Shown piece after piece: positions 2,416-30,961 of a stretch of 44,665 nucleotides of DNA. Every line of letters begins with the position of its first letter. Within the stretch, counting starts at the first letter, position 1. Where the stretch lies: sequence record NZ_CP102715.1. The stretch is one strand, 5' to 3'. The stretch is from a plasmid. The notes under the pieces were generated by a model. It saw nothing but the letters and a program-made list of their open reading frames with translations. It ran no database searches and was not told the DNA's origin. The translations under genes and the position numbers were made by a program.

Positions 2416-3525
2416 ATGACAAAATCAACAGATTTTAATTACTATGAAGCAGATAACGTATATGGAGCCTTATTTTTCCAGTTTCCTAAGGTATTAATGT
2501 ATGGCGAGCAATACAAGCATTTAAGCAGTGACGCTAAATTGGCTTATATGGTACTGAAAGACCGGCTCGAGTATTCTTTGCGCAACAATTGGGTTGATGA
2601 AAAAGGACACGTCTACTTTATTTTTACCGTTAAAGAACTACAAGACTTATTTAACTGCGCTACTGAAAAAGCCGTTAAAATCAAAAAAGAATTGCAAACA
2701 GCTAATCTATTAAAACAAATTCAAATGGGATTTAATCCTAAAACGAAAAAGAATGAACCGAATCGTCTATACCTTTCTAAACTCGATGTGAAAGCTACTG
2801 ATGTCTATTTAAGGGGCGAATATGGGCAAAAAAAGCCTGAATCCCTTGCTACAAGCGGAATTTCGAAAATCGAAAGTCCGCATGACTTCGTTGAATCCCT
2901 TGCTACGAGCGGAATTTCGAAAATCGAAAGTCCGCATGACTTCGTTGACGACCCACCGCAAACCCTTGCTACGAGCGGAATTTCGAAAATCGAAAGCAAT
3001 CTATATAAAGACTATAAAAATATAGATACTAATAGATACGATATAGATACTCAAAAGTTGGACTTTCCCACAGCCAATTTTTCACCAGCTGAAATTGAAG
3101 CCCAAAATCGGGATTTAGTAAAACATGCTGATGAGTTCTTAACTGACGAAGATAATGGCTTACCAGTCTTCTTAGAACCAGAAGCCGTGCAACTACTTAG
3201 CTTTTGGTGCCGGACCCCACAACAAATGCGGCGCTTTATTGGCATTATCTTAAACGCCAAATATGCTGTTGAAAAAGAACATAAAGATTTAGGCGTATGG
3301 ATTCTATTAGATGACCCTGATTTGAAAAAAATGATGACCAAAACATTAAGACGCTATTTTAATGTCCTAAGGAGCGACGAGAAACATATCAAGAATATTG
3401 AGAACTACCTGTACGGCACCATGCAAAACCTATTTGGTGTTTGGTGGAACCAACAAGCAGCTAGAGAATATGCGGCCAAACACCCCGAAGAACAAAATAT
3501 TGATAACGAGCATACTTGGGATTAA
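2416..3525 (+). CDS. repA: RepA_N-family plasmid replication initiator
   Basis: N-terminal motif FQFPKVLMYGEQYKHLSSDAKLAYMVLKDRLEYSLRNNWVDEKGHVYFIFTVKELQDLFNC is typical of RepA_N initiators of Firmicutes plasmids (pSK41/pAD1 type). ATG at 2416 with AAGAAAGGGAG RBS; the track start at 2386 is a GTG. Confidence 0.85.
   Translation: MTKSTDFNYYEADNVYGALFFQFPKVLMYGEQYKHLSSDAKLAYMVLKDRLEYSLRNNWVDEKGHVYFIFTVKELQDLFNCATEKAVKIKKELQTANLLKQIQMGFNPKTKKNEPNRLYLSKLDVKATDVYLRGEYGQKKPESLATSGISKIESPHDFVESLATSGISKIESPHDFVDDPPQTLATSGISKIESNLYKDYKNIDTNRYDIDTQKLDFPTANFSPAEIEAQNRDLVKHADEFLTDEDNGLPVFLEPEAVQLLSFWCRTPQQMRRFIGIILNAKYAVEKEHKDLGVWILLDDPDLKKMMTKTLRRYFNVLRSDEKHIKNIENYLYGTMQNLFGVWWNQQAAREYAAKHPEEQNIDNEHTWD
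2835..2998. repeat. In-frame 54-bp tandem repeats (about 3 copies) inside repA. Candidate iterons / internal origin.
   Basis: The DNA unit cccttgctacRagcggaatttcgaaaatcgaaagtccgcatgacttcgttga is repeated head-to-tail. It encodes SLATSGISKIESPHDFVE x3. Confidence 0.7.
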
Positions 3526-4958: not shown

Positions 4959-5226
4959 GTTGATCGTTTTTGAATTTGTTCGGTTTATGCGCATTAACGT
5001 AATTAGCAAATATTTTTAAAAGTTCTTCGGTTTGTTCGACCGAGAGGTTATTAGCTTGGAAGTACTTTTCTAATAAAGCCCCTTTTTGAATTAATCGGCG
5101 AGAACGGTCTTTGCGTGCTTGCCGATTTTCATAGTATTTAGATTGCCGTAATTTAAAATCTTCCCGCTCAATTTTTTGTTTTAAACGCGCTTGTTGTTTA
5201 ACTAATTTTTCATATTGATTAGGCAT
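4948..5226 (-). CDS. DUF3847-like coiled-coil protein, a family frequently adjacent to Firmicutes relaxases
   Basis: The pattern KQQARLKQKIEREDFKLRQSKYYENRQARKDRSRRLIQKGALLEKYF fits DUF3847. AGGAAATTCTATG RBS. Confidence 0.45.
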   Translation of the reverse strand: MPNQYEKLVKQQARLKQKIEREDFKLRQSKYYENRQARKDRSRRLIQKGALLEKYFQANNLSVEQTEELLKIFANYVNAHKPNKFKNDQPNN

Positions 5227-5248
5227 AGAATTTCCTCATCTCGTATGG

Positions 5249-5458
5249 CTAATGATCTACGGACTTTTTCTTTAAAAATTCAGAAAATTGCTGGGCTAAA
5301 AGCTTAATCTGATCGTTAGACAAATTAGTATATTCTAAATTGGCTTGATTGATGATTTGTTTACCTAGCCGTTGTTCAATTCTATTTTTTTCGTCCTTAA
5401 TTTTTTGATTAAGGGCTTTTAATTTAGCTTCTTGTTTTTCTAAGTTACTTTGAGACAT
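5249..5458 (-). CDS. Small coiled-coil hypothetical protein
   Basis: Likely starts at MSQSNLEKQ (GGAGGG RBS), not the longer track ORF. Charged coiled-coil composition. Confidence 0.35.
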   Translation of the reverse strand: MSQSNLEKQEAKLKALNQKIKDEKNRIEQRLGKQIINQANLEYTNLSNDQIKLLAQQFSEFLKKKSVDH

Positions 5459-5594
5459 AACGATCCCTCCAATCATATTAGAAATAATCACCGAAACTAT
5501 ATCATATAGGAAACGTTAAGTCAAAGGATAAAAGTTGAAATAGCGAAGCGGAGGGCATACACTAAAAGTGGAGTTAAGGGAATCAGCAGACCGA

Positions 5595-5650
5595 GTGAAA
5601 CGAGGTCAATGCGCACTTACACACAACAACTAAGTTGGTTGTGTTATTGT
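5595..5650 (-). promoter_or_regulatory. Candidate oriT (MOBQ type). The nick core GTAAGTGCGC is on the minus strand, with an adjacent inverted repeat.
   Basis: Minus strand reads 5'-AACACAACCAACTTAGTTGTTGTGT-GTAAGTGCGC-ATTGACC. The 10-mer TAAGTGCGC is identical to the RSF1010/R1162 and pIP501 nick-region cores (..TAAGTGCGCCCT..). An imperfect IR immediately 5' of it matches the organisation of those oriTs. Confidence 0.55.
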
Positions 5651-5716
5651 GCTAAACCCTTGTATCAGAAGTCGCCGTTGGCAACAACAAAAGCAAACCC
5701 ATAGACCCAAAGAAAG

Positions 5717-7792
5717 ATGGTGACCGACATGGCAATTTTTCACATGAGTTTTAGTAATATTAGTGCTGGTAAAGGACGAAGTGCGATTGCCAGTGCCGCT
5801 TATCGAAGTGGTAAAAAGCTATTCGATCAAAAAGAAGGGCGAAGCTATTTTTATGCCCGCTCGGTTTTGCCAGAAAGCTTTATTTTAACCCCCAAAAATG
5901 CACCAGAATGGGCCAGTGATCGAGAGCGGTTGTGGAATGAAGTCGAAAGAAAAGATCGTAGAGCAAATTCACGCTATGCAAAAGAGTTTAACGTGGCTTT
6001 ACCAGTTGAATTAAGTGAAGATGAACAGAAAGAATTATTGACAAAATATGTACAAGAAAATTTTGTTGATGAGGGTATGGTTGCCGACGTAGCAATTCAT
6101 AGAGATCACCCAGATAATCCGCACGCTCATGTTATGTTAACTAATCGTCCATTTAATCCAGACGGAACATGGGGATTGAAAAGTAAAAGGGAAAATATAT
6201 TAGATGAAAATGGGAACAAGACTTATACAGGAAATAGTCGTTTTCCAAGATCAAGAAAGGTGTGGCTAGTTGATTGGGATAAAAAAGAAAAAATCACTGA
6301 ATGGCGGCACAATTGGGCGGTTAGTGTAAATCAAGTTTTAGCACAAAAAAATATTCCGGATCGGATCAGTGAAAAATCCTTTATCGAGCAGGGAATAGAT
6401 GATACCCCAATGCAACATGAGGGAATCAATAGCAAGCGGTATGAAAGAAAAGAATTTAACCAACAAGTAAAGAACTATCGCAAGGCCAAAGCCAGTTATA
6501 AAAACAACCAAGAAAAAGTAATTAATCGAGGTCATTTAGATAGTCTAAGCAAACACTTCTCGTTTAATGAAAAACGGGTGGTCAATGAGTTAAGTCATGA
6601 ACTAAAAACTTATATTAGTTTGGAAAGTTTAGATGATAAGCGGCGCATGCTATTTAATTGGAAAAACAGCACCTTAATTAAACATGCGGTTGGTGAAGAT
6701 GTGACTAAACAATTATTGACAATTAACCAACAAGAAAGCTCACTCAAAAAAGCAGATGAGCTCTTAAATAAAGTGGTTGATCGCACGACTAAAAAACTTT
6801 ATCCAGAGCTTAATTTTGAACAGACCACGCAAGCTGAAAGACGAGAATTAATTAAGGAAACCGATAGCGAACAAACGATTTTCAAAGGCAGTGAATTAAA
6901 CGAACGTTTAATGAACATTCGTGATGATTTGTTGACCCAACAATTATTGACCTTTACCAAACGGCCATACGTTGGCTGGAAGTTATTAATGCAACAAGAA
7001 AAGGAAGTCAAAATCGAGCTTAAATATACGCTGATGATTCATGACGATAGCTTAGAAAGTCTAGAACACGCTGATCAAGGTCTACTAGAAAAGTATTCAC
7101 CAACCGAGCAGCAAAAGATTACTCGCGCAGTCAAAGATTTGCGAACAATCATGGCTGTGAAGCAAGTTATTCAAACCCAATACCAGGAAGTTTTAAAAAG
7201 AGCCTTTCCTAACGGCGATTTTAATGAATTACCAATGATTAAACAGGAACAGGCCTATACAGCAGTGATGTACTATAATCCAGCTTTAAAACCATGTAAG
7301 GTTGAAACAATCGCACAGTGGCAAGCAAAACCACCACAGGTGTTCAGTCCCCAAGAACATCAACAAGGACTAGCTTATTTATCGGGACAGCTCAGCTTAG
7401 ACCAGTTAGAAAATCATCACCTACAACGGGTTTTAAAGCATGATGGCACTAAACAACTCTTTTTGGGTGAATGCAAAGTCGATCCAACGATTAAGAACAG
7501 TCAGATCGAGAAAATCCAAAAGCAGTTAAAAGAGCAACAAGCCAAGGACGATCAGTACCGAAAAGCAAATATGGGGCATTATCAACCGCTAAATTATAAG
7601 CCAGTTAGTCCAGACTATTACTTAAAGACAGCCTTTAGTGATGCGATTATGACTGTTCTATATGCTCGTGATGAAGATTACCAACGGCAAAAGCAAGAAC
7701 GTGGACTGAAAGAAACCGAGTGGGCAATGACGAAAAAGCAGCGGCAACACCAAACCCGGAACCGGCATGAAGATGGGGGTATGCACTTGTAA
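5717..7792 (+). CDS. traA: MobA/MobL-family conjugative relaxase (MOBQ, TraA-like)
   Basis: N-terminal relaxase domain with the HxDxxNxHxH motif ([13 protein letters not shown]) and [17 protein letters not shown].. start. 691 aa. The actual start may be ATG 5729 (MAIFH). Confidence 0.9.
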
Positions 7793-10197: not shown

Positions 10198-12216
10198 ATG
10201 GGTTTTGGTGATAAGATCATTGATTTGTTTATGCCAACTAAAAAAGAAAGACAGCCAAGTAATCATGAACTAGCGGTTAGCGAGCCCAAACCGGAGATTG
10301 AGGATTTTACCAAGTTGATTGATCGCGACAGCTTGCATTCACTATTTCCGTTTAGCTGGGAACAGTACCCTACCTATGTCCAGTCGGGCGAGAATTTTAT
10401 TCGAGTGTTAGCGATCGCTGACTATCCCAAGCGGGTGTATGGCAACTGGCTATCAGAGCTAAAGCGCAAAAAAGGCGTTATCGATATTGTGCAATATATC
10501 GACAGCGCCAGTAACAATTCAATGATTACCTATTACAAGAAGACGATTCAAAATAAGGAAGCACAGAAGCTCAATACGTTCGACCCGTATAAAAAGAAGA
10601 TTCTGCAAAATTATATTGATTCAGCCAACATGCAACTAGATAAATACCTTGATAATTCTACCACATTTGTGTACCAACATATGCTCATTTATCTGCGGGC
10701 CAACAGTTTAGTAGAACTAGACGACTTAACCGAAAACGTTAAGAATACGTTGATTAAGCTACAGATGAAACCGCTAGTACCCGTTAAAGCAACCTTTCAA
10801 GCATTTTGGTCAACCATGCCAATTAACGAGAACCTCATGGGGGATTACACGTACAAAGAAAGTAATACCGAAGTTGCCAGCAGCATGTTTCCCTTTGACG
10901 ACGCGGAAATTTTGGACTTGAAGCCGAGAAGCGATATTGAAGGGGTTAACAAAGATACTAACAGCTTAATTGCCGTGGATATGTTGGATCGCAACAAGAC
11001 CCTGAACCAGAATATGGTTGTTATTGGTACTTCCGGTGTGGGTAAAACAACCTACATGATCCAGAAGATTCTAAGATATGCCATTCAAGACTATCAGCTC
11101 TACATTATTGATCCAGAAAATGAATATACCAAAATTGTCGAAGCTTTAGGTGGCGCAGTCTTGCACTTAACTTCTAATGCGAAGTACAAAATTAACCCGC
11201 TACAAATTTTTTCTGAAGAAATCCTAAGCGCTGATGAAGCGGTCATGAATCTTGATTTACTAGTTAAAGATAAAATTCAGCGATTAAAAGGGTTCTTTGA
11301 AGTCCTTAAAACCGGGATTACCCAAGTTGAGCTGGCAATTCTTGATGATGTGGTTAAACAGGCCTACGTCAACAGTGGTGTTTTGAAATACAGCCGCTTA
11401 AAAGAGATTAAAGACGATCAGTGGCCGACCCTATCCAACGTTTATGACGAATTGGAAAAACTAGCTGACAAGGACGCCGACAAATTCAGTCGGGTTAAAG
11501 ACTTCTACTATATCTTAGGCAGCTATACCCATGGTTCTAACAGCCTGTTTGACGGGCACACCAACGTCAACCTAAAAGGAAAGATCATTTCTTTTGATCT
11601 AAAACCCCTACAAAGTGAACAGGAAGTCCAATCAGCGGCTTATCTGAATACCTTCCAGTATTTGTGGGACGAAATCACCAAGGATCGGCATAGCCGCAAG
11701 AAATTGTTTGTCGATGAATTTCACTTTTTGACCTTGCACAAAGCAGCCGCCACCTTTTTCCACCAGGCCTACAAGCGGTTTAGAAAGTATAATGCTGGGG
11801 CGATTGCCGGAACACAGCAAATTCAAGATGTGATCGAAGGAACAACTGATACCGGTCAAAATATAGGTGAAGCCATTATTGGGAACTCCTATACCAAAGT
11901 GTTCTTTGGTCTTGACGGTAAAGGTGTCGATGATGTCATTACGAAACTACGCATGACGTTCTCGGATAAAGAAAAGAAGCTACTAGAACGTCGTAGACAA
12001 GGTGAAGCCCTGATGATCTATGGTAGCCAACGCGCCTTTATGCGTGTCGAGTTGACCGAAGAAGAACTACGGCTAATTGACCCAGAAGCTTACCAAGAAA
12101 AATACAACCGTGAGACAGCCGGGCAACCGGACTATCAAAAGCGCGTGGTCTTAACTCCCAGTGAAATTGACGCCTTGACCACCACCGAGGAGGAAGGAGG
12201 GGCTTTAAATGAGTAA
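10198..12216 (+). CDS. VirB4-family T4SS ATPase (TrsE/TraE-like), middle and C-terminal domains
   Basis: Walker A VIGTSGVGKTT, Walker B LFVDEFH. Length 672 aa. Own RBS TAGGGGGA. Confidence 0.85.
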   Translation: MGFGDKIIDLFMPTKKERQPSNHELAVSEPKPEIEDFTKLIDRDSLHSLFPFSWEQYPTYVQSGENFIRVLAIADYPKRVYGNWLSELKRKKGVIDIVQYIDSASNNSMITYYKKTIQNKEAQKLNTFDPYKKKILQNYIDSANMQLDKYLDNSTTFVYQHMLIYLRANSLVELDDLTENVKNTLIKLQMKPLVPVKATFQAFWSTMPINENLMGDYTYKESNTEVASSMFPFDDAEILDLKPRSDIEGVNKDTNSLIAVDMLDRNKTLNQNMVVIGTSGVGKTTYMIQKILRYAIQDYQLYIIDPENEYTKIVEALGGAVLHLTSNAKYKINPLQIFSEEILSADEAVMNLDLLVKDKIQRLKGFFEVLKTGITQVELAILDDVVKQAYVNSGVLKYSRLKEIKDDQWPTLSNVYDELEKLADKDADKFSRVKDFYYILGSYTHGSNSLFDGHTNVNLKGKIISFDLKPLQSEQEVQSAAYLNTFQYLWDEITKDRHSRKKLFVDEFHFLTLHKAAATFFHQAYKRFRKYNAGAIAGTQQIQDVIEGTTDTGQNIGEAIIGNSYTKVFFGLDGKGVDDVITKLRMTFSDKEKKLLERRRQGEALMIYGSQRAFMRVELTEEELRLIDPEAYQEKYNRETAGQPDYQKRVVLTPSEIDALTTTEEEGGALNE

Positions 12217-13627
12217 ACTAAACCAGCTATTAAATATCGAGGTCGGCACGTTCAAGCGACAGGGGAACAAGTTAATTCTCGAACTCAATCACAATCAGTT
12301 TCGATACGACCAGTTGAGTGAGCTAAACGAATTAAAACAAGCTGATTCCAAGTTCTTGCAGTTGGTTAACGTGGTTGAGCAAGACCAGAAGGTCGTTCTA
12401 ACTTATACCTTGCCGGATAAGGTCAGATCATTAAAGGACTTGCCACATGAAAATAAGGCGATCCGGGCAGCCATTGCGAAAGAAATTATGGCGCAAAATG
12501 TGGTTAACGATAGCCAGTATCACATTGCGTTGAACCCTGCCAACCTATGGTATTACCCCATGCAGCATGTTTGGTACGCTTACCGGGCCAATGAACTTAT
12601 GCCTTATGATGACAAACATAGCAATTTAGCTAAATACAAAGCGCTGATTCTATTTTGTTTGACGGGGACGCCCTATGAACGGCTACTAAGCAATCCTCAA
12701 GAAGCCCTAGCTAAACACCCTGATGACTATTTACAACAAGTAGCTAAAGCCGCGTCGTTAAATGAGTTAACGGAAGTGGTTAACGGCATTGAGGACTTCG
12801 TGAGCTATCACGAATGGCAGGAAGTTGAAACCGCCCAACAGAAAACCAAACAACGATTATGGTTGAGCGTGGCCGTGGTGGTGGTTATGGCCGTTTTGGC
12901 TGTCGGCTTAGTTCATAAAAGTGACGAACGGCAATATCAAAGCTTAGCTAACCAGAACCAAGCCCAAGTTACTCGTTTAAAGTACAATAACCAAATTCAG
13001 ACAGCTTTAAACAATCACCAATGGTCGAAAGCAAAAAAGACCATGCAGAAAGCTGGTTATAGCAAAAACAGTCAAGTTCAAACATTCTTAAAACATAAAC
13101 AGTATCAGCAAGCCTTAAACGTTGACCCAGGTCAGTTGAACAAGGTTGTTAATGCGGCTTATGCCAAAAAAGATAGCGGTCAAGTGGCCGATTGGCAGTT
13201 ACCCACTAAGGCGACAAGTAAGCAAAAAGACCAATTGAAACTCGAAAAAGCGATTGTTAACTATAACACCAATACGCTCAATAACCAATTATCCTTTACG
13301 ACGAACGCTGATGTTTTATTGAGAATGGGACAAGCCTTCCTCGCCCATAACGATACGCAAGACGCCCAGATCGTCCAAACCAAGTTAGCCGGCGTGAACA
13401 GTCCTAAAGCTAAGTACCTCAAAGCGCTATTAAGTCTCAACTCTGCTAAGAAAGAAGTTAGCGACGCCCAAAAGAAGTTAGATGACGCCAACAAAATTGA
13501 TGATAGTAAAGATAAGGATAAAGACAAGAAGGTGGATTCAGCCAAGTCTGATTTAACGAATGCCCAAAACGATCAGCAGGCGGCCCAAAAAAAGGTCGAT
13601 CAGGCCAAGCACAAAGTGGGTGATTAA
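12209..13627 (+). CDS. T4SS membrane protein with central TM and C-terminal coiled-coil/KD-rich tail (TrsF-like)
   Basis: 472 aa. Single TM LWLSVAVVVVMAVLAVGLV. GGAGG RBS. Position matches TrsF/TraF. Confidence 0.45.
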   Translation: MSKLNQLLNIEVGTFKRQGNKLILELNHNQFRYDQLSELNELKQADSKFLQLVNVVEQDQKVVLTYTLPDKVRSLKDLPHENKAIRAAIAKEIMAQNVVNDSQYHIALNPANLWYYPMQHVWYAYRANELMPYDDKHSNLAKYKALILFCLTGTPYERLLSNPQEALAKHPDDYLQQVAKAASLNELTEVVNGIEDFVSYHEWQEVETAQQKTKQRLWLSVAVVVVMAVLAVGLVHKSDERQYQSLANQNQAQVTRLKYNNQIQTALNNHQWSKAKKTMQKAGYSKNSQVQTFLKHKQYQQALNVDPGQLNKVVNAAYAKKDSGQVADWQLPTKATSKQKDQLKLEKAIVNYNTNTLNNQLSFTTNADVLLRMGQAFLAHNDTQDAQIVQTKLAGVNSPKAKYLKALLSLNSAKKEVSDAQKKLDDANKIDDSKDKDKDKKVDSAKSDLTNAQNDQQAAQKKVDQAKHKVGD

Positions 13628-23313: not shown

Positions 23314-23341
23314 CCAGATTTTAAAGGTCATGCTATAATAT

Positions 23342-23470
23342 AAACAGAAAAAGGAAGTCCCGCCGAAAACAGGACTTCCCGTGCAAGCCGCTTCAAAGGC
23401 GGTGGCATTAACATTAGACTAAATACTAGTCGTCCTGTAACCTGCCAAAGTTACACAGGGCGGCTTTTTT
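23342..23470 (+). ncRNA. Candidate small structured RNA (type I antitoxin-like), copy A. Runs from an extended -10 promoter (TGCTATAAT at 23326-23334) to a bidirectional terminator.
   Basis: Perfect 8-bp hairpin GGAAGTCC..GGACTTCC. Second hairpin CCGC..GCGG. Terminal stem plus GGCTTTTTTATTT. Convergent with the peptide ORF at 23469-23558. Confidence 0.35.
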
Positions 23471-23558
23471 ATTTGTGGTGCTTGTCGATATAGCTGAGGA
23501 GCGCGATTAAAAACGTGCCAAACAGCAACATCAACGAGAGTGTCTGGAAGACGCTCAT
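23469..23558 (-). CDS. Fst/Ldr-like type I toxin peptide (29 aa), copy A
   Basis: Minus-strand ORF ATGAGCGTCTTCCAG..AAATAA encodes MSVFQTLSLMLLFGTFLIALLSYIDKHHK (TM helix plus charged tail). GGAAGG RBS-like motif lies upstream. Extended -10 TGTATAAT on the minus strand near 23657-23664. Confidence 0.45.
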   Translation of the reverse strand: MSVFQTLSLMLLFGTFLIALLSYIDKHHK

Positions 23559-24024: not shown

Positions 24025-25374
24025 ATGGATAAATTTAAAAATATTATTATTGGATTTGGTAAGGCGGGTAAGACATTAGCTAAGTACTTAGCGCAGCATG
24101 ATGAGACCGTGCTTCTGATCGAACGGTCTAAACAAATGTACGGAGGAACTTGCATCAATGTTGGCTGCCTACCATCTAAAAATTTAATTTTAAATGGTCA
24201 ACGTGGCGTGGACTTCACTACAGCAGTTAATAAGCGTGGTAAGATGACTAGACAGTTGCGAAACAAAAACTATCACATGGTGGCTGATGAGCCACTAGCA
24301 ACGGTTTGGGATGGGTCAGCCCGGTTTATCGACAATTATGTTTTGGCAGTCGTAATGAGTGATGGAACGACTAAGAAGGTGAGAGGTGAACGCATCTTCA
24401 TTAATACTGGAGCGGTTCCAAATTGGCCATCAATCCCAGGGCTAGAATTCGGTCAGCGGATTTTTACGTCTAAAGAAGCTATGGAATTGAAGAAACAACC
24501 GAAACGACTAGCAATTATTGGCGGCGGTTATATTGGCCTTGAATTTGCTGGAATGTTTAATTCCTTTGGTACACATGTAACGATTTTCGACCAACATACC
24601 AGATTGTTAGAGCGCGAAGATCCTGATATTGCGACCGAGGTCGTAACAGATCTGACTAACGCAGGGATCGAGATTAAACTGGAGACTCAACTAACGCAAG
24701 TAAAAGATAATGGTGAGAAGGTTACATTATATTATCAACAAGGTGATCAAACTAGCACTGCGGAATTTGATGCGGTATTAGTTGCAGTCGGTCGGCGGCC
24801 TAATGTAAGTAGTTTAGGACTAGAAAATACTGATATTGCTTTAACCAATCGCGGTGCTATTCAGGTCGATGATCATTTAAGAACTACAGTACAAAACATT
24901 TGGGCTTTAGGTGACGTTAATGGTGGTCCTATGTTCACTTATGTCTCATTGGATGATTTTCGTATTATCATAGATCAATTGTTTGGTAAGGGGGATCGCT
25001 CAACGGCTGATCGAATGGTGATACCGACTGCTTCGTTCCTAAATCCACCACTGGCCAACGTTGGCTTAAATGAACGTCAGGCCAAGAGTGCAGGTTATAA
25101 CTTTCAAACTTTTAAGCTATCAGTTAAGGCGATTCCAAAGGCCCGGGTCTTGGAGGATCAACGCGGGCTTTATAAGGTAATCGTTGATCAAAAAACACAC
25201 CTTATTTTAGGGGCAACATTGTATGCCGCTGAGGCTCATGAAACCATCAATCTAATTGCATTGGCAATGAAGGCCAAATTACCTTACGAAAGATTACGCG
25301 ACATGATCTATACTCATCCAACAATGTCTGAAGCCTTGAATGATCTTTTTAAGACCCCGGTCGTGAAAAGCTAA
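24025..25374 (+). CDS. Class I pyridine nucleotide-disulfide oxidoreductase (glutathione reductase / dihydrolipoamide dehydrogenase family)
   Basis: FAD-binding IIGFGKAGKT. Redox-active disulfide motif GGTCINVGCLPSK. C-terminal HPTMSEAL dimerisation/active-site His motif. Confidence 0.8.
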   Translation: MDKFKNIIIGFGKAGKTLAKYLAQHDETVLLIERSKQMYGGTCINVGCLPSKNLILNGQRGVDFTTAVNKRGKMTRQLRNKNYHMVADEPLATVWDGSARFIDNYVLAVVMSDGTTKKVRGERIFINTGAVPNWPSIPGLEFGQRIFTSKEAMELKKQPKRLAIIGGGYIGLEFAGMFNSFGTHVTIFDQHTRLLEREDPDIATEVVTDLTNAGIEIKLETQLTQVKDNGEKVTLYYQQGDQTSTAEFDAVLVAVGRRPNVSSLGLENTDIALTNRGAIQVDDHLRTTVQNIWALGDVNGGPMFTYVSLDDFRIIIDQLFGKGDRSTADRMVIPTASFLNPPLANVGLNERQAKSAGYNFQTFKLSVKAIPKARVLEDQRGLYKVIVDQKTHLILGATLYAAEAHETINLIALAMKAKLPYERLRDMIYTHPTMSEALNDLFKTPVVKS

Positions 25375-25657
25375 CGCCCTAGAAACACAAAGCCGACTAG
25401 TTAATCGAGGAAACAATCAAGAAATCACCGTTAAAATTATTGCGCAATGTGATTAACAATGCCCTTAATCTAAAGGACCGGGGTTACCAGATCTTCGAGC
25501 ATTGTGATCTACCTTTACACAATAACCACGATGAGCAACGGATCCACTCTACCACGCTGGTGCGAAAGAATAAGTCTGTTCACAAAACCAACGGCAAGCG
25601 CAAAGGCTAATACGATCTGGTTTGGGATTGTACAAATGGTAAAATTAAATAAACTGG

Positions 25658-26023
25658 ATGTCTTTAAAGTCTACTTCGGGGAATGTTGCTTTTTATTCCA
25701 TAACTCAAGGACCTATTGAATTACAAAATAAATTAGCCCAGAATTTCCCAGAATATGTTGATCCAGTCTCGCATAAAGATGCAGAGTCTCCGCTTAGAAC
25801 AGATTGGACTCGGCTAGGTCAGTCTCCTAGTTGGAATGGACGCCAAGCTTTTATTAATCAATTTAATGCTACTTATGGTACTCAATCTGCTGATTGGTGG
25901 TCTGCTCGACAAATTCATCATATTCGTCCAAGAATTTATGGTGGTACAGATGATTTTAATAATTTACTCCCTGTTCCCAATGCAAATCATTATTTAATAA
26001 CAAGTTGGTTTAGAAACTATTAA
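25658..26023 (+). CDS. Orphan polymorphic-toxin C-terminal domain (HNH/EndoVII-fold xHH nuclease-like), lacking an N-terminal trafficking domain
   Basis: The motif ARQIHHIRPRIYGGTDDFNNLLPVPNANH has the HH..P..GG..N..H arrangement of HNH-fold toxin tips. An in-frame stop lies 4 codons upstream of the ATG. Confidence 0.5.
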   Translation: MSLKSTSGNVAFYSITQGPIELQNKLAQNFPEYVDPVSHKDAESPLRTDWTRLGQSPSWNGRQAFINQFNATYGTQSADWWSARQIHHIRPRIYGGTDDFNNLLPVPNANHYLITSWFRNY

Positions 26024-26035
26024 GGTGCTAAATAT

Positions 26036-26539
26036 ATGGAAATAGATTCAATTGTAAATTCTCTCAAAACAATGTCTCAAGTTAGTAACTATAAAATTTA
26101 TGTTTCTGGATCTTTACCAATGAATGTTGGTTTTCGATTAAAAGCTAAAGCAACTCAGGCTGATTTAAAAAAGTTTGATAAAATTAATTACTCTCTTCCC
26201 AACGATTATTTAGCCTTTATAAGTCAAATAAATGGTGCAGAGTTATTTACTGATGGAAAGTATATCCAAAAATGTAAAATCTATTCGATTCAAGAAGTAT
26301 TACATTGGCGAGAATTTTTAAGAAGCTCAGGATTTTACCCGGAGTGGGATAAACTTCTCCCAATTCTAGAACTACAAGATATCGGTCAACTAATACTTAA
26401 TTTGGAACGATATGAAAACCAAGAAGATTATTTATTATATCCTGATGAATCAAATAAATATTTCCACATTGGCTTTACTGAATGGTTGAATAATTATTTA
26501 CTAACAAACGGTAGCGAATTTTGGTATATGAACTCATAA
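26036..26539 (+). CDS. SUKH (SMI1/KNR4)-family immunity protein
   Basis: LPNDYLAFISQINGAELF matches the SUKH-1 core (LPxDYxxFLxxxNGGxF). 167 aa. Directly downstream of the toxin tip. Confidence 0.6.
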   Translation: MEIDSIVNSLKTMSQVSNYKIYVSGSLPMNVGFRLKAKATQADLKKFDKINYSLPNDYLAFISQINGAELFTDGKYIQKCKIYSIQEVLHWREFLRSSGFYPEWDKLLPILELQDIGQLILNLERYENQEDYLLYPDESNKYFHIGFTEWLNNYLLTNGSEFWYMNS

Positions 26540-26830
26540 GAAATGAAATAAGTAGCAAGCCCTCTCGTACAATACCCCTTATGTTTTAGAATTGCCAATT
26601 CATGCGGGTGAAGTTTCCTTTTTTACACAACATTCTTGACACTCTCGTTCCCAACACCACCAATCGTTAATTCTAATTTATTTTTCATCGAACATTGATA
26701 TTTATAATTGTGTGTGCTATCACTAACTACCAATAGGGGAATCACTTTATTCCCCTATTCTTCGTGGGTTGCATCCGAAATACTTCAGCTCGAAGTAACG
26801 CCACGTTAAAAACAAAAGGAGGTAACTTTT

Positions 26831-27574
26831 ATGTTACAGAAGATTGCGAAGTCGAAGAGTTTTGATTTGCTTGGGGTCCTGATTGTCGTTGCCATCTCAA
26901 TTGCTTCTGGTTACCTAACCGAAACCCTCGCTGACGTCACGCATTGGGGCCACTGGACGGTCTTCGTTCCCTTTGGAATTATCTCGATTATCAATTCGAT
27001 TCTCTCGATTTATTCAACCCGGCTGACCGGCCGGATGAATAACCTGGGGAACGTGGTTGGGATCGCGAACGTGGTGCTTTCCGGGACGATTGATTACATT
27101 CTGGGAAACCAGGCAGCCGTCATCACTTACCCAGTGACCTTCATCATCTACACGGTGGCGATCGAACACTGGAAGCGGACTGAGAAGTACAAGAGCTCCA
27201 AGCCAATGACGGGCGCTAAAGGGGTGCTCACCATCATCGGCATGTTCATCCTATCCTTGCTCTTCTCGTTTGGAACCAACTACATTGGCTGGACGAACAG
27301 CCTTACTGATCCCCTCTTCTGGATCACCGTTATCGCCTTTGGCTTGAGCCTGGGTGCTAACGTCCTCAACGCCATGAAGTTTGAAATGCAGTGGAAGTTC
27401 TGGGTTCTTTACGACTTTATTCAGTTAGCGAAGGCCGGAATTCAGGGCAACTTCGCTAACATTGGTAAGTACGTTTACTACATCATCAACGCCATCGCGG
27501 CCCTTGCCTTCTGGCGGGACCCGCTCGAAGTCACCCCTGCCTCCAAGGTGAACCAGAAGGTTAACCGCGTCTAA
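26831..27574 (+). CDS. pnuC: PnuC-family nicotinamide riboside transporter
   Basis: 247 aa, 7-8 TM. W-rich conserved helices (HWGHWTVF, IEHWKRT, GWTNSLTDPLFWI). AAAGGAGG RBS. Markedly G+C-richer than its flanks. Confidence 0.7.
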   Translation: MLQKIAKSKSFDLLGVLIVVAISIASGYLTETLADVTHWGHWTVFVPFGIISIINSILSIYSTRLTGRMNNLGNVVGIANVVLSGTIDYILGNQAAVITYPVTFIIYTVAIEHWKRTEKYKSSKPMTGAKGVLTIIGMFILSLLFSFGTNYIGWTNSLTDPLFWITVIAFGLSLGANVLNAMKFEMQWKFWVLYDFIQLAKAGIQGNFANIGKYVYYIINAIAALAFWRDPLEVTPASKVNQKVNRV

Positions 27575-27702: not shown

Positions 27703-27750
27703 AGCGGGCGACTAACGCAGAAAATTGCGTTGGTCGCCCGCTATTTTTGT
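27703..27750 (+). terminator. Rho-independent terminator downstream of pnuC
   Basis: AGCGGGCGACTAACGCAG / TGCGTTGGTCGCCCGCT stem followed by ATTTTTGTTT. Confidence 0.6.
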
Positions 27751-27846: not shown

Positions 27847-30747
27847 TCAAATAGTAAATCTATTTATAACTACTAAACCCAAGCTTAGCAATAACGTCAC
27901 TAGTCCAATTAACATCATACCCATTGATGATTCATTACCTGTTTGAGGTAATTTACCTGTTTTTTCGTAGGTTTTACCTTGAGTGTAAGCCTTTGGTGTT
28001 ACCTTATTCCCATTATTAGGAACTTGAGGCTTCTTAGGCGTTGTCGGGTTATTAGGAACCTGGGGCTTCTTAGGTGTTGTCGGATTATGGGTATTAGTAA
28101 TATTGTAACCATCAACAGTACTGGTGTACCCGGCAACTGCATCTTCCGTTACCGTGTAGGTGATCTTCTGACCATTAGCGTAAGCAGCTAAGTTGTCGAA
28201 ACTGTATTGCCAGTTATCACTAGCACTAACCGTCTTACTTGCGACTTGTTGACCATTGGCCAATAAGTTCACGGTGATTGAACTTGGGCGGATTCCATCT
28301 TGATTGTTGTTATCGTTCCAAGTCTTGGTTCCAGATACCTTGACGGTGGCAGGAGTGTGGTTGTTAGTTACGTTGTAACCATCAACAGTACTTGTGTACC
28401 CAGCAACTGCATCTTCCGTTACCGTGTAGGTGATCTTCTGACCATTAGCGTAAGCAGCTAAGTTGTCGAAACTGTATTGCCAGTTATCACTAGCACTAAC
28501 CGTCTTACTTGCGACTTGTTGACCATTGGCCAATAAGTTCACGGTGATTGAACTTGGGCGGATTCCATCTTGATTGTTGTTATCGTTCCAAGTCTTGGTT
28601 CCAGATACCTTGACGGTGGCAGGAGTGTGGTTGTTAGTTACGTTGTAACCATCAACAGTACTTGTGTACCCAGCAACTGCATCTTCCGTTACCGTGTAGG
28701 TGATCTTCTGACCATTAGCGTAAGCAGCTAAGTTGTCGAAACTGTATTGCCAGTTATCACTAGCACTAACCGTCTTACTTGCGACTTGTTGACCATTGGC
28801 CAATAAGTTCACGGTGATTGAACTTGGGCGGATTCCATCTTGATTGTTGTTATCGTTCCAAGTCTTGGTTCCAGATACCTTGACGGTGGCAGGAGTGTGG
28901 TTGTTAGTTACGTTGTAACCATCAACAGTACTTGTGTACCCAGCAACTGCATCTTCCGTTACTGTGTAGGTAATCTTCTTATCATTTTCAAATTCAGGTA
29001 AGTTAGTGAAGCTGTACTTCCAGTTGTCTGATGCCTTCACTGTCTTACTCTGAACAACCTTACCATTAGCTAATAAGTTAACCTTGATTGAATCAGGGCG
29101 CTTGCCGTCTTGATCATCATTATCTTTCCAAGTCTTTGTACCTGAAACGGTAGTAACAGCTTTCTTATCTGTGATCGTTGCTGTTGCTCCCTTAGAGTCA
29201 AAACTATCAGCTGAAACAGTAACATCTTTAGCCAATGTATATCCCGATGGAGCCGAAGTTTCACGTATAATATAATCATCTTTTAGAAGACCATAAATTG
29301 TTCCTTTACCATCAGGACCAGTAGTTATGGTTCCAACAACCCCATTAGTTGACTTGCGAATAACAGAAAAAACAGCATTTGCAAGTGGGGCTCCAGATTC
29401 ATCCTCTTTATTTATAGTTAAACTATAATTATATCCATTAGCTTTGCCATTAGCCTCTTGGTAAAGAACTCTATTTATAGAACTGTTTATTACCTTCTTA
29501 TTAGATTTATAGCTAACATCATTCTCGACCAGTTCGCCATTAAGTAATGGATGGTTTGACTTAACCCGGTAGACAATTGCATAACCCTCAGATATATTGC
29601 CCAATTTCACTGTATAAGCACTATTGCTTGAATTAATATCAATGTTATATTGGCTTGTCACATCTTGTGGATTGCTCAATGTCCAATAGTTCTCAGAATT
29701 TCTTTCCCAATTCCCTTTAGAAATAGAAAAACTTCCGGGCACATAAGAAAAACCATCTGAAGCCAAACTATCAGAGATAACTACATTACTGACACTTTGC
29801 ATAGAGGCGTTAATGTTGACGTGATAGATAATTTCATTCTTGTTATTGTCATAATCAACATATCCGTACTTCCAAAAGTCTGTTGCTGTATCACCCTTGG
29901 AAGGTATGTGTTTTATACCAGATCTATCAATCGTAACGGTGTGCCCATTAATCTTGATTTCCGCTGGTATGGTCTCTTCTTTATTGATTTCACTTGTAGC
30001 GGCCGTTACTTGCATATCAATATGGCCACTTATTGAGTCATGTGAATCAACGTAATCGGTGTAGGTTAGAACAAGTGATTTGCTGGGCTTATCGATAACT
30101 GCTGTAGCTACAACAGTTTTGCCATCAGGTGCATAAATATTAAACTTCTGAGATCGTTGGAAATCTAACTGATCCGGTAATGAAATAGTTGTTGTATCCC
30201 CAGATTTGGCTGAATCTGGAACTGAGAAATCAAAAGAGAATTCTGTAGTTCCTCCACCTGAGATCTCCTTAGTTGATGATCTCTGATTGGTAATTGTAAT
30301 ATCAACGCTAGTTCCTTTATTATATGCAGATGGGGAACTATTATTCTTAGAAATACTATTAACTGATGGACCCTGATTAGTATTAGCCCCACTATTAGAA
30401 GTCGAGTATTGACTATTACTTATATAATTACGGTCCTCCTGAACTGGCTGATTATTGTCAGTTGGTGCTCTCGGTTGTGCTTCTGTATTAGTAACTTGTT
30501 TCTGAGACGTCTGATCGTCCGAAGAACTAGTATTATCTGTGGTATTACTATTAACGGTACTTATCTGCGGTTCTTCCTGTTGATTAATAACAGTCCCGGA
30601 CCCCGTACCGTTCTGAGTAATATTTGTCTTGCTATCAGCATATACGGTCATACCATTATTAGATGATATCCATATTGACCCTAATAACGAAAATAAGACT
30701 AGTCCCATCATAAATAAAAGTCGACGATGCCTAGATTTATTACTCAT
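27847..30747 (-). CDS. LPxTG-anchored surface adhesin with four tandem CnaB-type (isopeptide/B-repeat) domains
   Basis: Signal peptide (MSNKSRHRRLLFMMGLVLFSLLG; GAAGGAGG RBS before ATG 30747). S/T/N-rich stalk. 4x 90-aa repeats. C-terminal LPQTG plus TM plus basic tail. Confidence 0.85.
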   Translation of the reverse strand: MSNKSRHRRLLFMMGLVLFSLLGSIWISSNNGMTVYADSKTNITQNGTGSGTVINQQEEPQISTVNSNTTDNTSSSDDQTSQKQVTNTEAQPRAPTDNNQPVQEDRNYISNSQYSTSNSGANTNQGPSVNSISKNNSSPSAYNKGTSVDITITNQRSSTKEISGGGTTEFSFDFSVPDSAKSGDTTTISLPDQLDFQRSQKFNIYAPDGKTVVATAVIDKPSKSLVLTYTDYVDSHDSISGHIDMQVTAATSEINKEETIPAEIKINGHTVTIDRSGIKHIPSKGDTATDFWKYGYVDYDNNKNEIIYHVNINASMQSVSNVVISDSLASDGFSYVPGSFSISKGNWERNSENYWTLSNPQDVTSQYNIDINSSNSAYTVKLGNISEGYAIVYRVKSNHPLLNGELVENDVSYKSNKKVINSSINRVLYQEANGKANGYNYSLTINKEDESGAPLANAVFSVIRKSTNGVVGTITTGPDGKGTIYGLLKDDYIIRETSAPSGYTLAKDVTVSADSFDSKGATATITDKKAVTTVSGTKTWKDNDDQDGKRPDSIKVNLLANGKVVQSKTVKASDNWKYSFTNLPEFENDKKITYTVTEDAVAGYTSTVDGYNVTNNHTPATVKVSGTKTWNDNNNQDGIRPSSITVNLLANGQQVASKTVSASDNWQYSFDNLAAYANGQKITYTVTEDAVAGYTSTVDGYNVTNNHTPATVKVSGTKTWNDNNNQDGIRPSSITVNLLANGQQVASKTVSASDNWQYSFDNLAAYANGQKITYTVTEDAVAGYTSTVDGYNVTNNHTPATVKVSGTKTWNDNNNQDGIRPSSITVNLLANGQQVASKTVSASDNWQYSFDNLAAYANGQKITYTVTEDAVAGYTSTVDGYNITNTHNPTTPKKPQVPNNPTTPKKPQVPNNGNKVTPKAYTQGKTYEKTGKLPQTGNESSMGMMLIGLVTLLLSLGLVVINRFTI
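28060..29140. repeat. Four 270-bp tandem repeats (three near-identical, one diverged) inside the adhesin gene
   Basis: accgtgtaggtgatcttctg recurs at 28151, 28421 and 28691, and diverged at 28961. Exact 270-bp period. Confidence 0.85.
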
Positions 30748-30961
30748 ACTGTTGCCTCCTTCTTTGTTTTCTATGCGCAATACTAAAGATTATCACATAC
30801 CCTTATATTACCATATTCTTATAGGAAATTTCACACTAACTTCACCAACCGTCAACAGTGATATCACTAGTGTTAGCGTAGCTATCAAACGTATGTTTCC
30901 TTAAGCTGCTAGGAAGCTGATTAAAAATAGTCGAAAATCAGTTATAGTCATGCTATAATAT

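Follow-up and report, generated by a model that had tools for sequence, protein, structure and literature searches.

A truncated HNH toxin gene and a probably retained orphan SUKH immunity gene on a conjugative plasmid and its relatives in the Lactobacillaceae

The toxin remnant and its immunity gene

The locus described here lies on a plasmid, of which a stretch of 44,665 nt (sequence record NZ_CP102715.1; "the window", in whose positions all coordinates are given unless another locus is named) was analysed. It consists of two adjacent genes on the plus strand: a 5′-truncated HNH toxin gene of 121 aa (25658–26023), whose exact protein is WP_252772986.1, and, after a spacer of 12 nt, an intact SUKH-1/SMI1_KNR4 immunity gene of 167 aa (26036–26539, PF09346). 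An earlier note on this sequence had read the pair as an orphan polymorphic-toxin tip with its immunity gene, an arrangement normally found behind full-length LXG, Rhs or CdiA toxins, and had suggested either a displaced immunity island or a reservoir for toxin-tip exchange with a chromosomal LXG toxin of the type VII secretion system (T7SS). Its description of the two genes is borne out by the present analysis, in which a family profile, an AlphaFold model searched with Foldseek and the invariant residues agree on an HNH/EndoVII-fold domain in the 121-aa open reading frame (ORF), and the SUKH assignment is confirmed by Pfam.

The 121-aa ORF carries no export domain, and an in-frame TAA at 25646–25648 is the fourth codon 5′ of its ATG, as had been noted; no Shine-Dalgarno sequence was found on reading the sequence before the ATG at 25658. 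The toxin domain itself is complete, occupying about residues 22–121 (25721–26020, plus strand), with the region conserved in polymorphic-toxin relatives beginning at about profile position 17–20. The HNH core residues H87/H88 (25916–25921), G95/G96, N102 (25961–25963) and H111 (25988–25990), all on the plus strand, fall in invariant columns of the family alignment, and every one of them is kept in the window copy. With Pfam, the ORF alone matches PF01844 at 18.8 bits, under the gathering score of 21.4, and a PF01844 match is found in 50 of 141 family proteins. Searched against 1.84 billion representatives, a family profile built from 11 relatives matched 707 proteins at E<1e-3, of which 424 reached E<1e-10; these 424 span 62–2660 aa, and in every one of the 150 best matches listed the aligned region is situated at or very close to the C terminus. 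Against solved structures, the same profile detected HNH domains of a group II intron maturase, Cas8f-HNH, an Rhs toxin and pyocin AP41 (E 8e-4 to 0.04), a relationship for which the profile was needed, as a single-sequence search of PDB sequences with the 121-aa ORF returned nothing. The AlphaFold model of the ORF contains a beta-beta-alpha core (E84–88, E103–107, H108–120), and its best Foldseek matches are all HNH proteins, namely Cas8f-HNH (probability up to 0.97), Rhs2-CT toxin and ColE7. By profile and model, the 121-aa ORF is a complete predicted nuclease domain of the HNH/EndoVII fold.

The specialised toxin-HNH families of Pfam (Tox-HNH variants, Colicin-DNase) gave no match to the HNH protein even at E 1 or 10, and at relaxed E only the generic PF01844 and HNH_5 appeared; NCBIfam yielded nothing beyond a meaningless IscB fragment match. 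The Pfam check proposed in the earlier note, which named Tox-HNH variants for the ORF and SUKH_1 (PF09346) for its neighbour, thus succeeded for the SUKH gene and gave no Tox-HNH match for the ORF. The domain relatives carry a wide range of N-terminal modules, including RHS_repeat, PT-HINT, PT-TG, WXG100_2/T7SS_signal, TPS with Fil_haemagg_2 (CdiA-like) and eCIS_core. Because the HNH domain is found at the C terminus of such varied carriers, it is, judged from these sequences, a C-terminal domain of the polymorphic-toxin type. A role in anti-phage defence was also considered and set aside, PADLOC having given nothing credible.

The SUKH protein matches PF09346 at 38.0 bits against a gathering score of 25.4 (E 3e-9), over residues 39–152 of the 167-aa protein and positions 2–124 of the 125-position profile. 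Its gene has a Shine-Dalgarno sequence of its own, AAGGTG at 26022–26027 (plus strand), which overlaps the toxin stop codon and ends 8 nt before the SUKH ATG. The protein is amino-acid identical to the copy that stands beside the full-length L. salivarius toxin, and this exact protein was listed in 5328 collection blocks and occurs on more than 1000 contigs from several genera. SUKH-like downstream genes of 159–168 aa also accompany the toxin in L. reuteri LL7, in Latilactobacillus sakei (P0013; locus L006), in locus L007 and in a Lactobacillus mulieris metagenome-assembled genome (MAG; L035). In the divergent relatives the toxin domain is 57–59% identical to that of the window and the immunity protein 31–36%. 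The pairing of toxin and SUKH genes is kept in these divergent relatives, and by these comparisons the immunity gene varies together with the toxin.

The parent toxin family

Seven plasmids of L. salivarius, among them pHN1, pSF118-44 and pR2, carry the full-length gene, of 918 bp and 305 aa, and L. reuteri LL7 also has a 305-aa gene, at 91% identity. On pSF118-44 of L. salivarius UCC118 the toxin is WP_011241749.1 and the SUKH protein WP_011241750.1. The parent gene has the Shine-Dalgarno sequence AGGAGG, and its product begins with a Sec-type signal peptide (MKNKRYLNKILLTAILVLFGSCISVKA followed by D). In the structural model a signal-peptide helix is followed by a beta-sandwich at residues 65–203 and the HNH domain at residues 246–304; fold matches to the beta-sandwich were generic Ig-like, ApaG or cohesin-like only. 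Signal peptide and architecture are kept in the 10 family members examined, and the architecture occurs in about a dozen subfamilies, with named sources in L. salivarius, Streptococcus agalactiae, Clostridium sp., Latilactobacillus sakei and the Lactobacillus mulieris MAG.

The link to an LXG toxin made in the earlier note is not upheld by this family. No LXG or WXG100 domain was found by Pfam on the 305-aa parent, and WXG100-like N-termini were seen only in distant relatives (P0018, at 36% identity, and P0040), which are actinobacterial-looking by composition. All 12 of the representative matches at E<1e-30, again among 1.84 billion representatives, are at most 301 aa long and have the parent architecture or its fragments wherever the N-terminus could be seen. 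The nearest relatives by word-index search likewise have the Sec-signal/beta-sandwich architecture, and a close relative was found in 3 of 185,579 species-representative genomes, the one inspected having the small Sec-signal architecture. No tip polymorphism was found on the beta-sandwich body, as all matches that cover the N-terminal part bear the same toxin domain. Because the closest relatives are all of the small Sec-signal architecture, the locus is, as far as its sequence relationships indicate, without LXG ancestry.

In the L. salivarius plasmids, the toxin-SUKH pair is bracketed by two directly oriented, degenerate copies of an IS256-family insertion sequence (IS; Transposase_mut), which in locus L001 lie at about 2500–3440 and 4998–5900; loci L020–L028 were compared likewise. 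At least two different left flanks adjoin the bracketed unit, either an ABC transporter or a nicotinate phosphoribosyltransferase (NAPRTase)/NrtR-NUDIX/TetR set, and the whole looks like a composite-transposon-like unit. All six of the L. salivarius plasmid full-length copies that were compared are intact, with amino-acid identical SUKH proteins.

Two further observations concern this family. The module is found recurrently beside genes of nicotinamide adenine dinucleotide (NAD) salvage, namely the nicotinate phosphoribosyltransferase and NrtR-type NUDIX regulator in L. salivarius (L017/L018, 1–1686) and pnuC in the window and in locus L029. In addition, an 87-aa protein (P0051) represents another chimeric truncation of the toxin gene, in which the N-terminus, MIDKPQYIIVAGINGAGKST, is P-loop-like and joins the toxin sequence in frame at NATYGTQSADWWSARQIHHIRPRIY.

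Origin of the truncated copy

The L. salivarius-derived DNA in the window is a 914-bp segment at 25668–26581 (plus strand), which comprises the 3′ 118 codons of the toxin gene, the spacer, the SUKH gene and 42 bp downstream of it, and is 99.8% identical to pHN1. At its left junction, at 25668, GTCTTTAA is joined to AGTCTACTTCGGGG, and the DNA upstream is unrelated to the parent gene; its right end, CCCCTTAGG at 26581, is the start of the IS256-family inverted repeat in pHN1. Residues 4–121 of the ORF correspond to residues 188–305 of the parent (98% identity), and residues 1–3 (M-S-L) come from the plasmid backbone. Of the parent sequence before the toxin domain, the ORF has only about 17 codons, from the last beta-strand and the linker. 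The remnant is without promoter, ribosome-binding site, signal peptide and beta-sandwich, and no other piece of the parent or of any toxin gene was found elsewhere in the 44.7-kb plasmid.

The sequence just upstream of 25658, which the earlier note had proposed as a recombination handle shared with a chromosomal toxin gene, proved to be plasmid backbone that is also present in cassette-free plasmids. It belongs to a spacer 3′ of the flavoprotein gene (25375–25667, plus strand), the source of both the stop at 25646–25648 and the ATG at 25658, and this spacer is 97% identical to cassette-free plasmids, e.g., L. rhamnosus pLC1. A 1.4-kb query matched 91 plasmid records, of which 18 hold the cassette, and by megablast against plasmids the cassette is about 99% identical across these 18 Lactobacillaceae plasmids. 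The uninterrupted site, in 5/5 cassette-free plasmids sampled, reads TTTAAG followed by TATTTTTAACC and runs on into the sequence found in the window from 27605 onwards. Because the left junction is identical in 8/8 cassette-bearing plasmids examined, the sequences indicate a single junction event, followed by spread over Limosilactobacillus, Lactobacillus, Lacticaseibacillus and Lactiplantibacillus. Positions 25658–25660 are ATG in all eight of these plasmids and ACG in the five with an uninterrupted site (L004, L030–L033), a difference that may have existed in the recipient as a chance polymorphism or have arisen afterwards by a C-to-T change.

No target-site duplication and no inverted repeats were found at the borders of the cassette, and transposition of the cassette as a unit was rejected on these grounds. 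The right border of the cassette coincides with an IS256-family end, and we infer that the segment was inserted by illegitimate recombination tied to IS256 activity. In L. fermentum pSNU175-2 and L. reuteri pLU4 the exact 914-bp piece stands alone at the site; in the window and several other plasmids an extra 68-bp IS256 end remnant and a pnuC segment are present. Derivation of either arrangement from the other by one deletion was considered and fails in both directions, and it is possible that the pnuC arrangement arose by homologous exchange within the SUKH gene with a plasmid like L029.

Decay of the toxin remnant and probable retention of the SUKH gene

Plasmids of the PLSDB collection that bear the truncated lineage were compared for decay of the two genes. 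The remnant has acquired stop codons in L. paracasei plca36 (K40*, together with H88Y), L. paracasei pLPCDM001A (W50*) and L. plantarum pMWLp-12A (R68*); its codons 1–68 are deleted in L. fermentum pLBF347, and codons 1–98 are gone from L. reuteri pLTR1318, where an IS256-family end lies at the break. In the lineage of L. fermentum pSNU175-2 and L. reuteri pLU4 the remnant has A83V and G95D, the latter in an invariant glycine. The SUKH gene is intact in all of these except pLPCDM001A, in which it is split by an IS256 element with an 8-bp target duplication. The disruptions thus number five in the shorter toxin remnant versus one in the SUKH gene. Nonsense changes account for 3/12 point mutations in the sister remnants versus about 5% expected by chance (P about 0.02), and among 15 intact 121-aa metagenome variants the changes G95D, H88Y and W50Q are recurrent.

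Outside the truncated lineage, at least three independent toxin losses were identified, and the SUKH gene is spared in each. In a metagenome contig of a MobL plasmid (L029, 3330–3505), toxin codons 46–305 are deleted such that the native upstream region and a stub of the signal peptide are joined to the SUKH ribosome-binding site, with pnuC downstream. On a 2.16-Mb chromosome (CP110798.1; L025, 2073–5320), the gene for an identical SUKH protein has an intact IS256-family transposase gene on one side and an IS3-type element on the other, and only the last 20 toxin codons are left. In locus L024 a full-length toxin gene is disrupted and the SUKH gene kept.

Interpretation of the locus

The probable explanation of the locus is a decaying toxin remnant beside a retained orphan immunity gene, the toxin having been lost and the immunity kept. 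The SUKH gene is intact here, its cognate toxin lacks an export signal here and the toxin gene is intact in L. salivarius plasmids, a combination by which the gene is, on sequence grounds, an orphan immunity gene. The parent module is a Sec-signal HNH toxin gene followed by a SUKH-1 gene, between degenerate IS256-family copies in L. salivarius plasmids, and one illegitimate joining placed the last 118 codons of the toxin and the whole SUKH gene 3′ of the flavoprotein gene on a RepA_N/MobQ backbone. Because signal peptide and ribosome-binding site were lost, the remnant could not be exported and is probably poorly translated from its accidental ATG. The SUKH gene, with its own Shine-Dalgarno sequence, probably owes its transcription to read-through from the flavoprotein gene, and the SUKH protein would neutralise, through binding, the HNH domain of a secreted L. 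salivarius-type toxin, which would protect plasmid hosts that share niches with producer strains. The remnant would meanwhile be subject either to neutral decay or to active inactivation, the latter because a leaky cytoplasmic nuclease would be harmful. Of the two origins suggested in the earlier note, the displaced immunity island fits the evidence best.

Several observations weigh against retained immunity or temper the argument for it. Point changes of the SUKH gene in the truncated-lineage plasmids comprise 6 missense and 3 synonymous, which gives no sign of purifying selection, in numbers too few for the purpose. The case for retention therefore lies in the intactness of the gene over independent toxin losses, themselves small in number. 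As all copies are about 99% identical, their spread was recent, and intactness may partly reflect the short time. The remnant in the window is fully intact, catalytic residues included, and cannot be called dead from its sequence. In a promoter scan of the cassette, candidate sites were no more numerous than in shuffled sequence, the internal candidate at 25906–25935 matching 9/12 positions; the read-through transcription from the flavoprotein gene is accordingly something we infer. The view of the parent as a secreted antibacterial DNase neutralised by the SUKH protein is likewise a prediction from sequence.

If both genes were functionless leftovers of a rearrangement mediated by IS256, travelling with pnuC or the backbone, the SUKH gene could be intact simply for want of time, and the recent spread, the near-neutral 6:3 ratio of missense to synonymous changes and the IS256-family ends at several of the joints would all suit such a neutral passenger. 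However, within the same span of time the shorter remnant was disrupted five times and the SUKH gene once, the three or more further toxin losses and disruptions spared the SUKH gene down to its exact ribosome-binding site, and the exact SUKH protein has reached several genera on more than 1000 contigs and in 5328 collection blocks, so that neutral carriage of both genes seems unlikely. The wholeness of the toxin domain in the window, with all its invariant HNH residues, raises instead the prospect of an exapted addiction module, in which the signal-less 121-aa protein is a toxin produced in the cytoplasm and the SUKH protein acts as the antitoxin, stabilising the plasmid as a type II toxin-antitoxin (TA) system would. 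The in-frame ATG is found only in the cassette-bearing plasmids, with ACG at the uninterrupted site in 5/5 sampled; the nonsense excess (3/12, P about 0.02) and the hits to invariant residues (H88Y, G95D) suggest a product that is made and harmful, and the sole plasmid with a disrupted SUKH gene, pLPCDM001A, already has W50* in its remnant. Yet such signs of harm are equally expected from a useless, leaky remnant, the ATG at 25658 has neither a Shine-Dalgarno sequence nor a promoter of its own, and dedicated TA systems are already present (a RatA-like type I system in the window; YafQ/RelB or Phd/YefM in relatives). Selection at the level of the plasmid should moreover keep the toxin, whereas it is disrupted or deleted in five sequenced sister plasmids, and the addiction module is judged improbable.

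A classical orphan C-terminal toxin (CT)-immunity cassette would be a silent tip serving as a reservoir that recombines into a full-length toxin gene of the LXG, Rhs or CdiA type in the host. The domain clade is indeed fused to many trafficking modules, and the ORF resembles orphan cassettes (PMC3482391) in having no initiation signals and the immunity gene next to it; some 17 parent-homologous residues are also kept upstream of the toxin domain. The part of the earlier note's cassette proposal that stands is therefore a tip lacking export domain and initiation signals with an immunity gene after it. The placement of such a cassette is lacking, as there is no full-length LXG, Rhs or CdiA gene ahead and no other toxin fragment on the plasmid, and the DNA 5′ of the junction is backbone and not a conserved pre-toxin region that could act as a handle. 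The relatives point the same way: the 12 closest (E<1e-30, 1.84 billion representatives) are all at most 301 aa long, the nearest by word index have the Sec-signal/beta-sandwich architecture, and of the 3 hits in 185,579 species-representative genomes the inspected one is of the small type. A reservoir for tip exchange is weakened further by the number of sister remnants that are broken, and the classical cassette is very improbable. The decaying remnant with a retained immunity gene is thus the preferred explanation.

Plasmid setting

The window plasmid is conjugative, with genes for RepA_N, a MobA/MobL relaxase, a VirB4-like ATPase, a VirD4 coupling protein, TrbL, TopB and ArdC, and the flanking genes named in the earlier note were both verified by Pfam. 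The flavoprotein gene (24025–25374) encodes a pyridine-nucleotide-disulphide oxidoreductase (Pyr_redox_2, 1e-63), and pnuC (26831–27574, plus strand) a transporter of nicotinamide riboside or nicotinamide mononucleotide (PF04973 NMN_transporter, 4.4e-15). The latter is a neighbour on a separately acquired segment and is outside the toxin-immunity pair; pSNU175-2 is without the segment 26588–27613 that includes pnuC and holds the toxin-immunity piece only. Between the cassette and the pnuC segment lies the 68-bp remnant of an IS256-family element end (26582–26649, plus strand), which is 94–98% identical to the ends of annotated IS256-family transposase elements in many plasmids. The first strong terminator-like hairpin downstream is at 27703–27742 (plus strand; 18 pairs followed by a T-run) and is likely to be the end of any read-through transcript, and no terminator-like site was found on the plus strand from the flavoprotein gene to 27703 except a weak one inside pnuC. 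An Rfam search upstream of pnuC found no riboswitch.

Other features of the plasmid were noted in passing. A RatA-like antitoxin RNA (RF01776, 54.4 bits against a gathering score of 49) is predicted at 23336–23425 (plus strand), convergent with a 29-aa hydrophobic ORF, MSVFQTLSLMLLFGTFLIALLSYIDKHHK, at 23469–23558 (minus strand); a "putative holin-like toxin" is annotated at the matching position in related plasmids, and the region 23336–23558 is likely a type I TA pair. A surface protein of 977 aa is encoded at 27847–30780 (minus strand), with a C-terminal LPQTG anchor motif and annotation as a Cna B-type or collagen-binding protein in relatives; within its gene lies a 270-bp tandem repeat (28103–28986; 3.3 copies, 99% identical), and the protein differs in length among sister plasmids. 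Within the conjugation cluster, which encodes a type IV secretion system, a YukC/EssB-like protein (PF10140, 6.6e-11) is encoded at 12209–13627, and the label "type VII secretion protein" that this gene has in relatives could falsely imply a T7SS on the plasmid.

Comparison with known systems and implications

Truncated bacteriocin genes beside maintained orphan immunity genes are described for E. coli plasmids (PMC12546727). As in the present locus, the colicin and microcin plasmids of E. coli keep an immunity gene without a working toxin, the same heavy truncation is common to distinct plasmids, and the arrangement is read as protection against toxins that other strains produce and not as addiction (PMC12546727). 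By this analogy, the E. coli orphan-immunity plasmids are the closest match in kind, and orphan immunity itself is already known. The differences lie in the hosts, which here are Gram-positive Lactobacillaceae; in the immunity protein, which is SUKH-1 and not an Im-type colicin immunity protein; in the parent, which bears a Sec signal peptide and is not accompanied by a lysis gene; and in the spread across genera on conjugative or mobilisable RepA_N/MobQ plasmids. The locus would thus be a clean Gram-positive parallel to the E. coli plasmids.

SUKH proteins were proposed to confer immunity to nuclease toxins (Zhang et al. 2011, PMC3113570), and the canonical order of the genes places the toxin before SUKH (PMC3113570; Zhang et al. 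2012, PMC3482391). The locus resembles these polymorphic toxin systems in its C-terminal HNH domain, with relatives on RHS, HINT, WXG100, TPS-haemagglutinin and eCIS proteins, and in the order of toxin and SUKH-1 genes. The general secretory pathway is the commonest export mode described for polymorphic toxins (PMC3113570, PMC3482391). Of the SUKH-linked systems in the 2011 survey, 99.25% were chromosomal (PMC3113570), whereas the present system is plasmid- and IS-borne and belongs to an HNH clade for which Pfam offers the generic PF01844 but no model of its own. With the orphan cdiA-CT/cdiI and rhs-CT/rhsI cassettes, the locus shares a tip without export region or translation signals and an immunity gene directly next to it, but it has no full-length toxin gene ahead, no pre-toxin handle and a single illegitimate junction with the backbone. 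The core motif HH-x-x-P ... GG ... N ... H is similar to that of the colicin E7/E9 and pyocin S/AP41 DNases, and pyocin AP41 and ColE7 are matched weakly by profile and fold. Outside the HNH core, no significant relationship to the sequences of these proteins exists, and the parent here differs from them in that it is predicted to be Sec-exported and not lysis-released, and in an immunity protein of another fold family.

The label "HNH endonuclease signature motif containing protein", under which the 121-aa product is annotated on these plasmids, denotes on this evidence a beheaded toxin remnant, and not a restriction or homing enzyme or an LXG cassette. At least four named genera, and one further Lactobacillus isolate, now carry this one junction; the isolates are of human, food and animal origin, with gut, oral, vaginal and fermented-food sources. 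A more interesting lead than the window locus is the uncharacterised parent toxin family, which is small, experimentally tractable and present in probiotic and commensal lactobacilli. Tentatively, and short of what could be called probable, the parent may represent an uncharacterised class of Gram-positive, Sec-exported, IS256-borne nuclease bacteriocins, in which a signal peptide precedes a beta-sandwich targeting domain and an HNH DNase, with a SUKH immunity gene alongside; its members would occur in L. salivarius, Streptococcus agalactiae, Latilactobacillus and Lactobacillus of the vagina or gut. Its immunity gene would be a resistance determinant that conjugative plasmids are now carrying from genus to genus within the Lactobacillaceae, and the recurrent knock-outs of the beheaded toxin would mean that the signal-less nuclease is still active in cells. 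The repeated, independent loss of the toxin with its immunity gene kept argues that the L. salivarius toxin matters in nature, and that conjugative plasmids spread protection against it.

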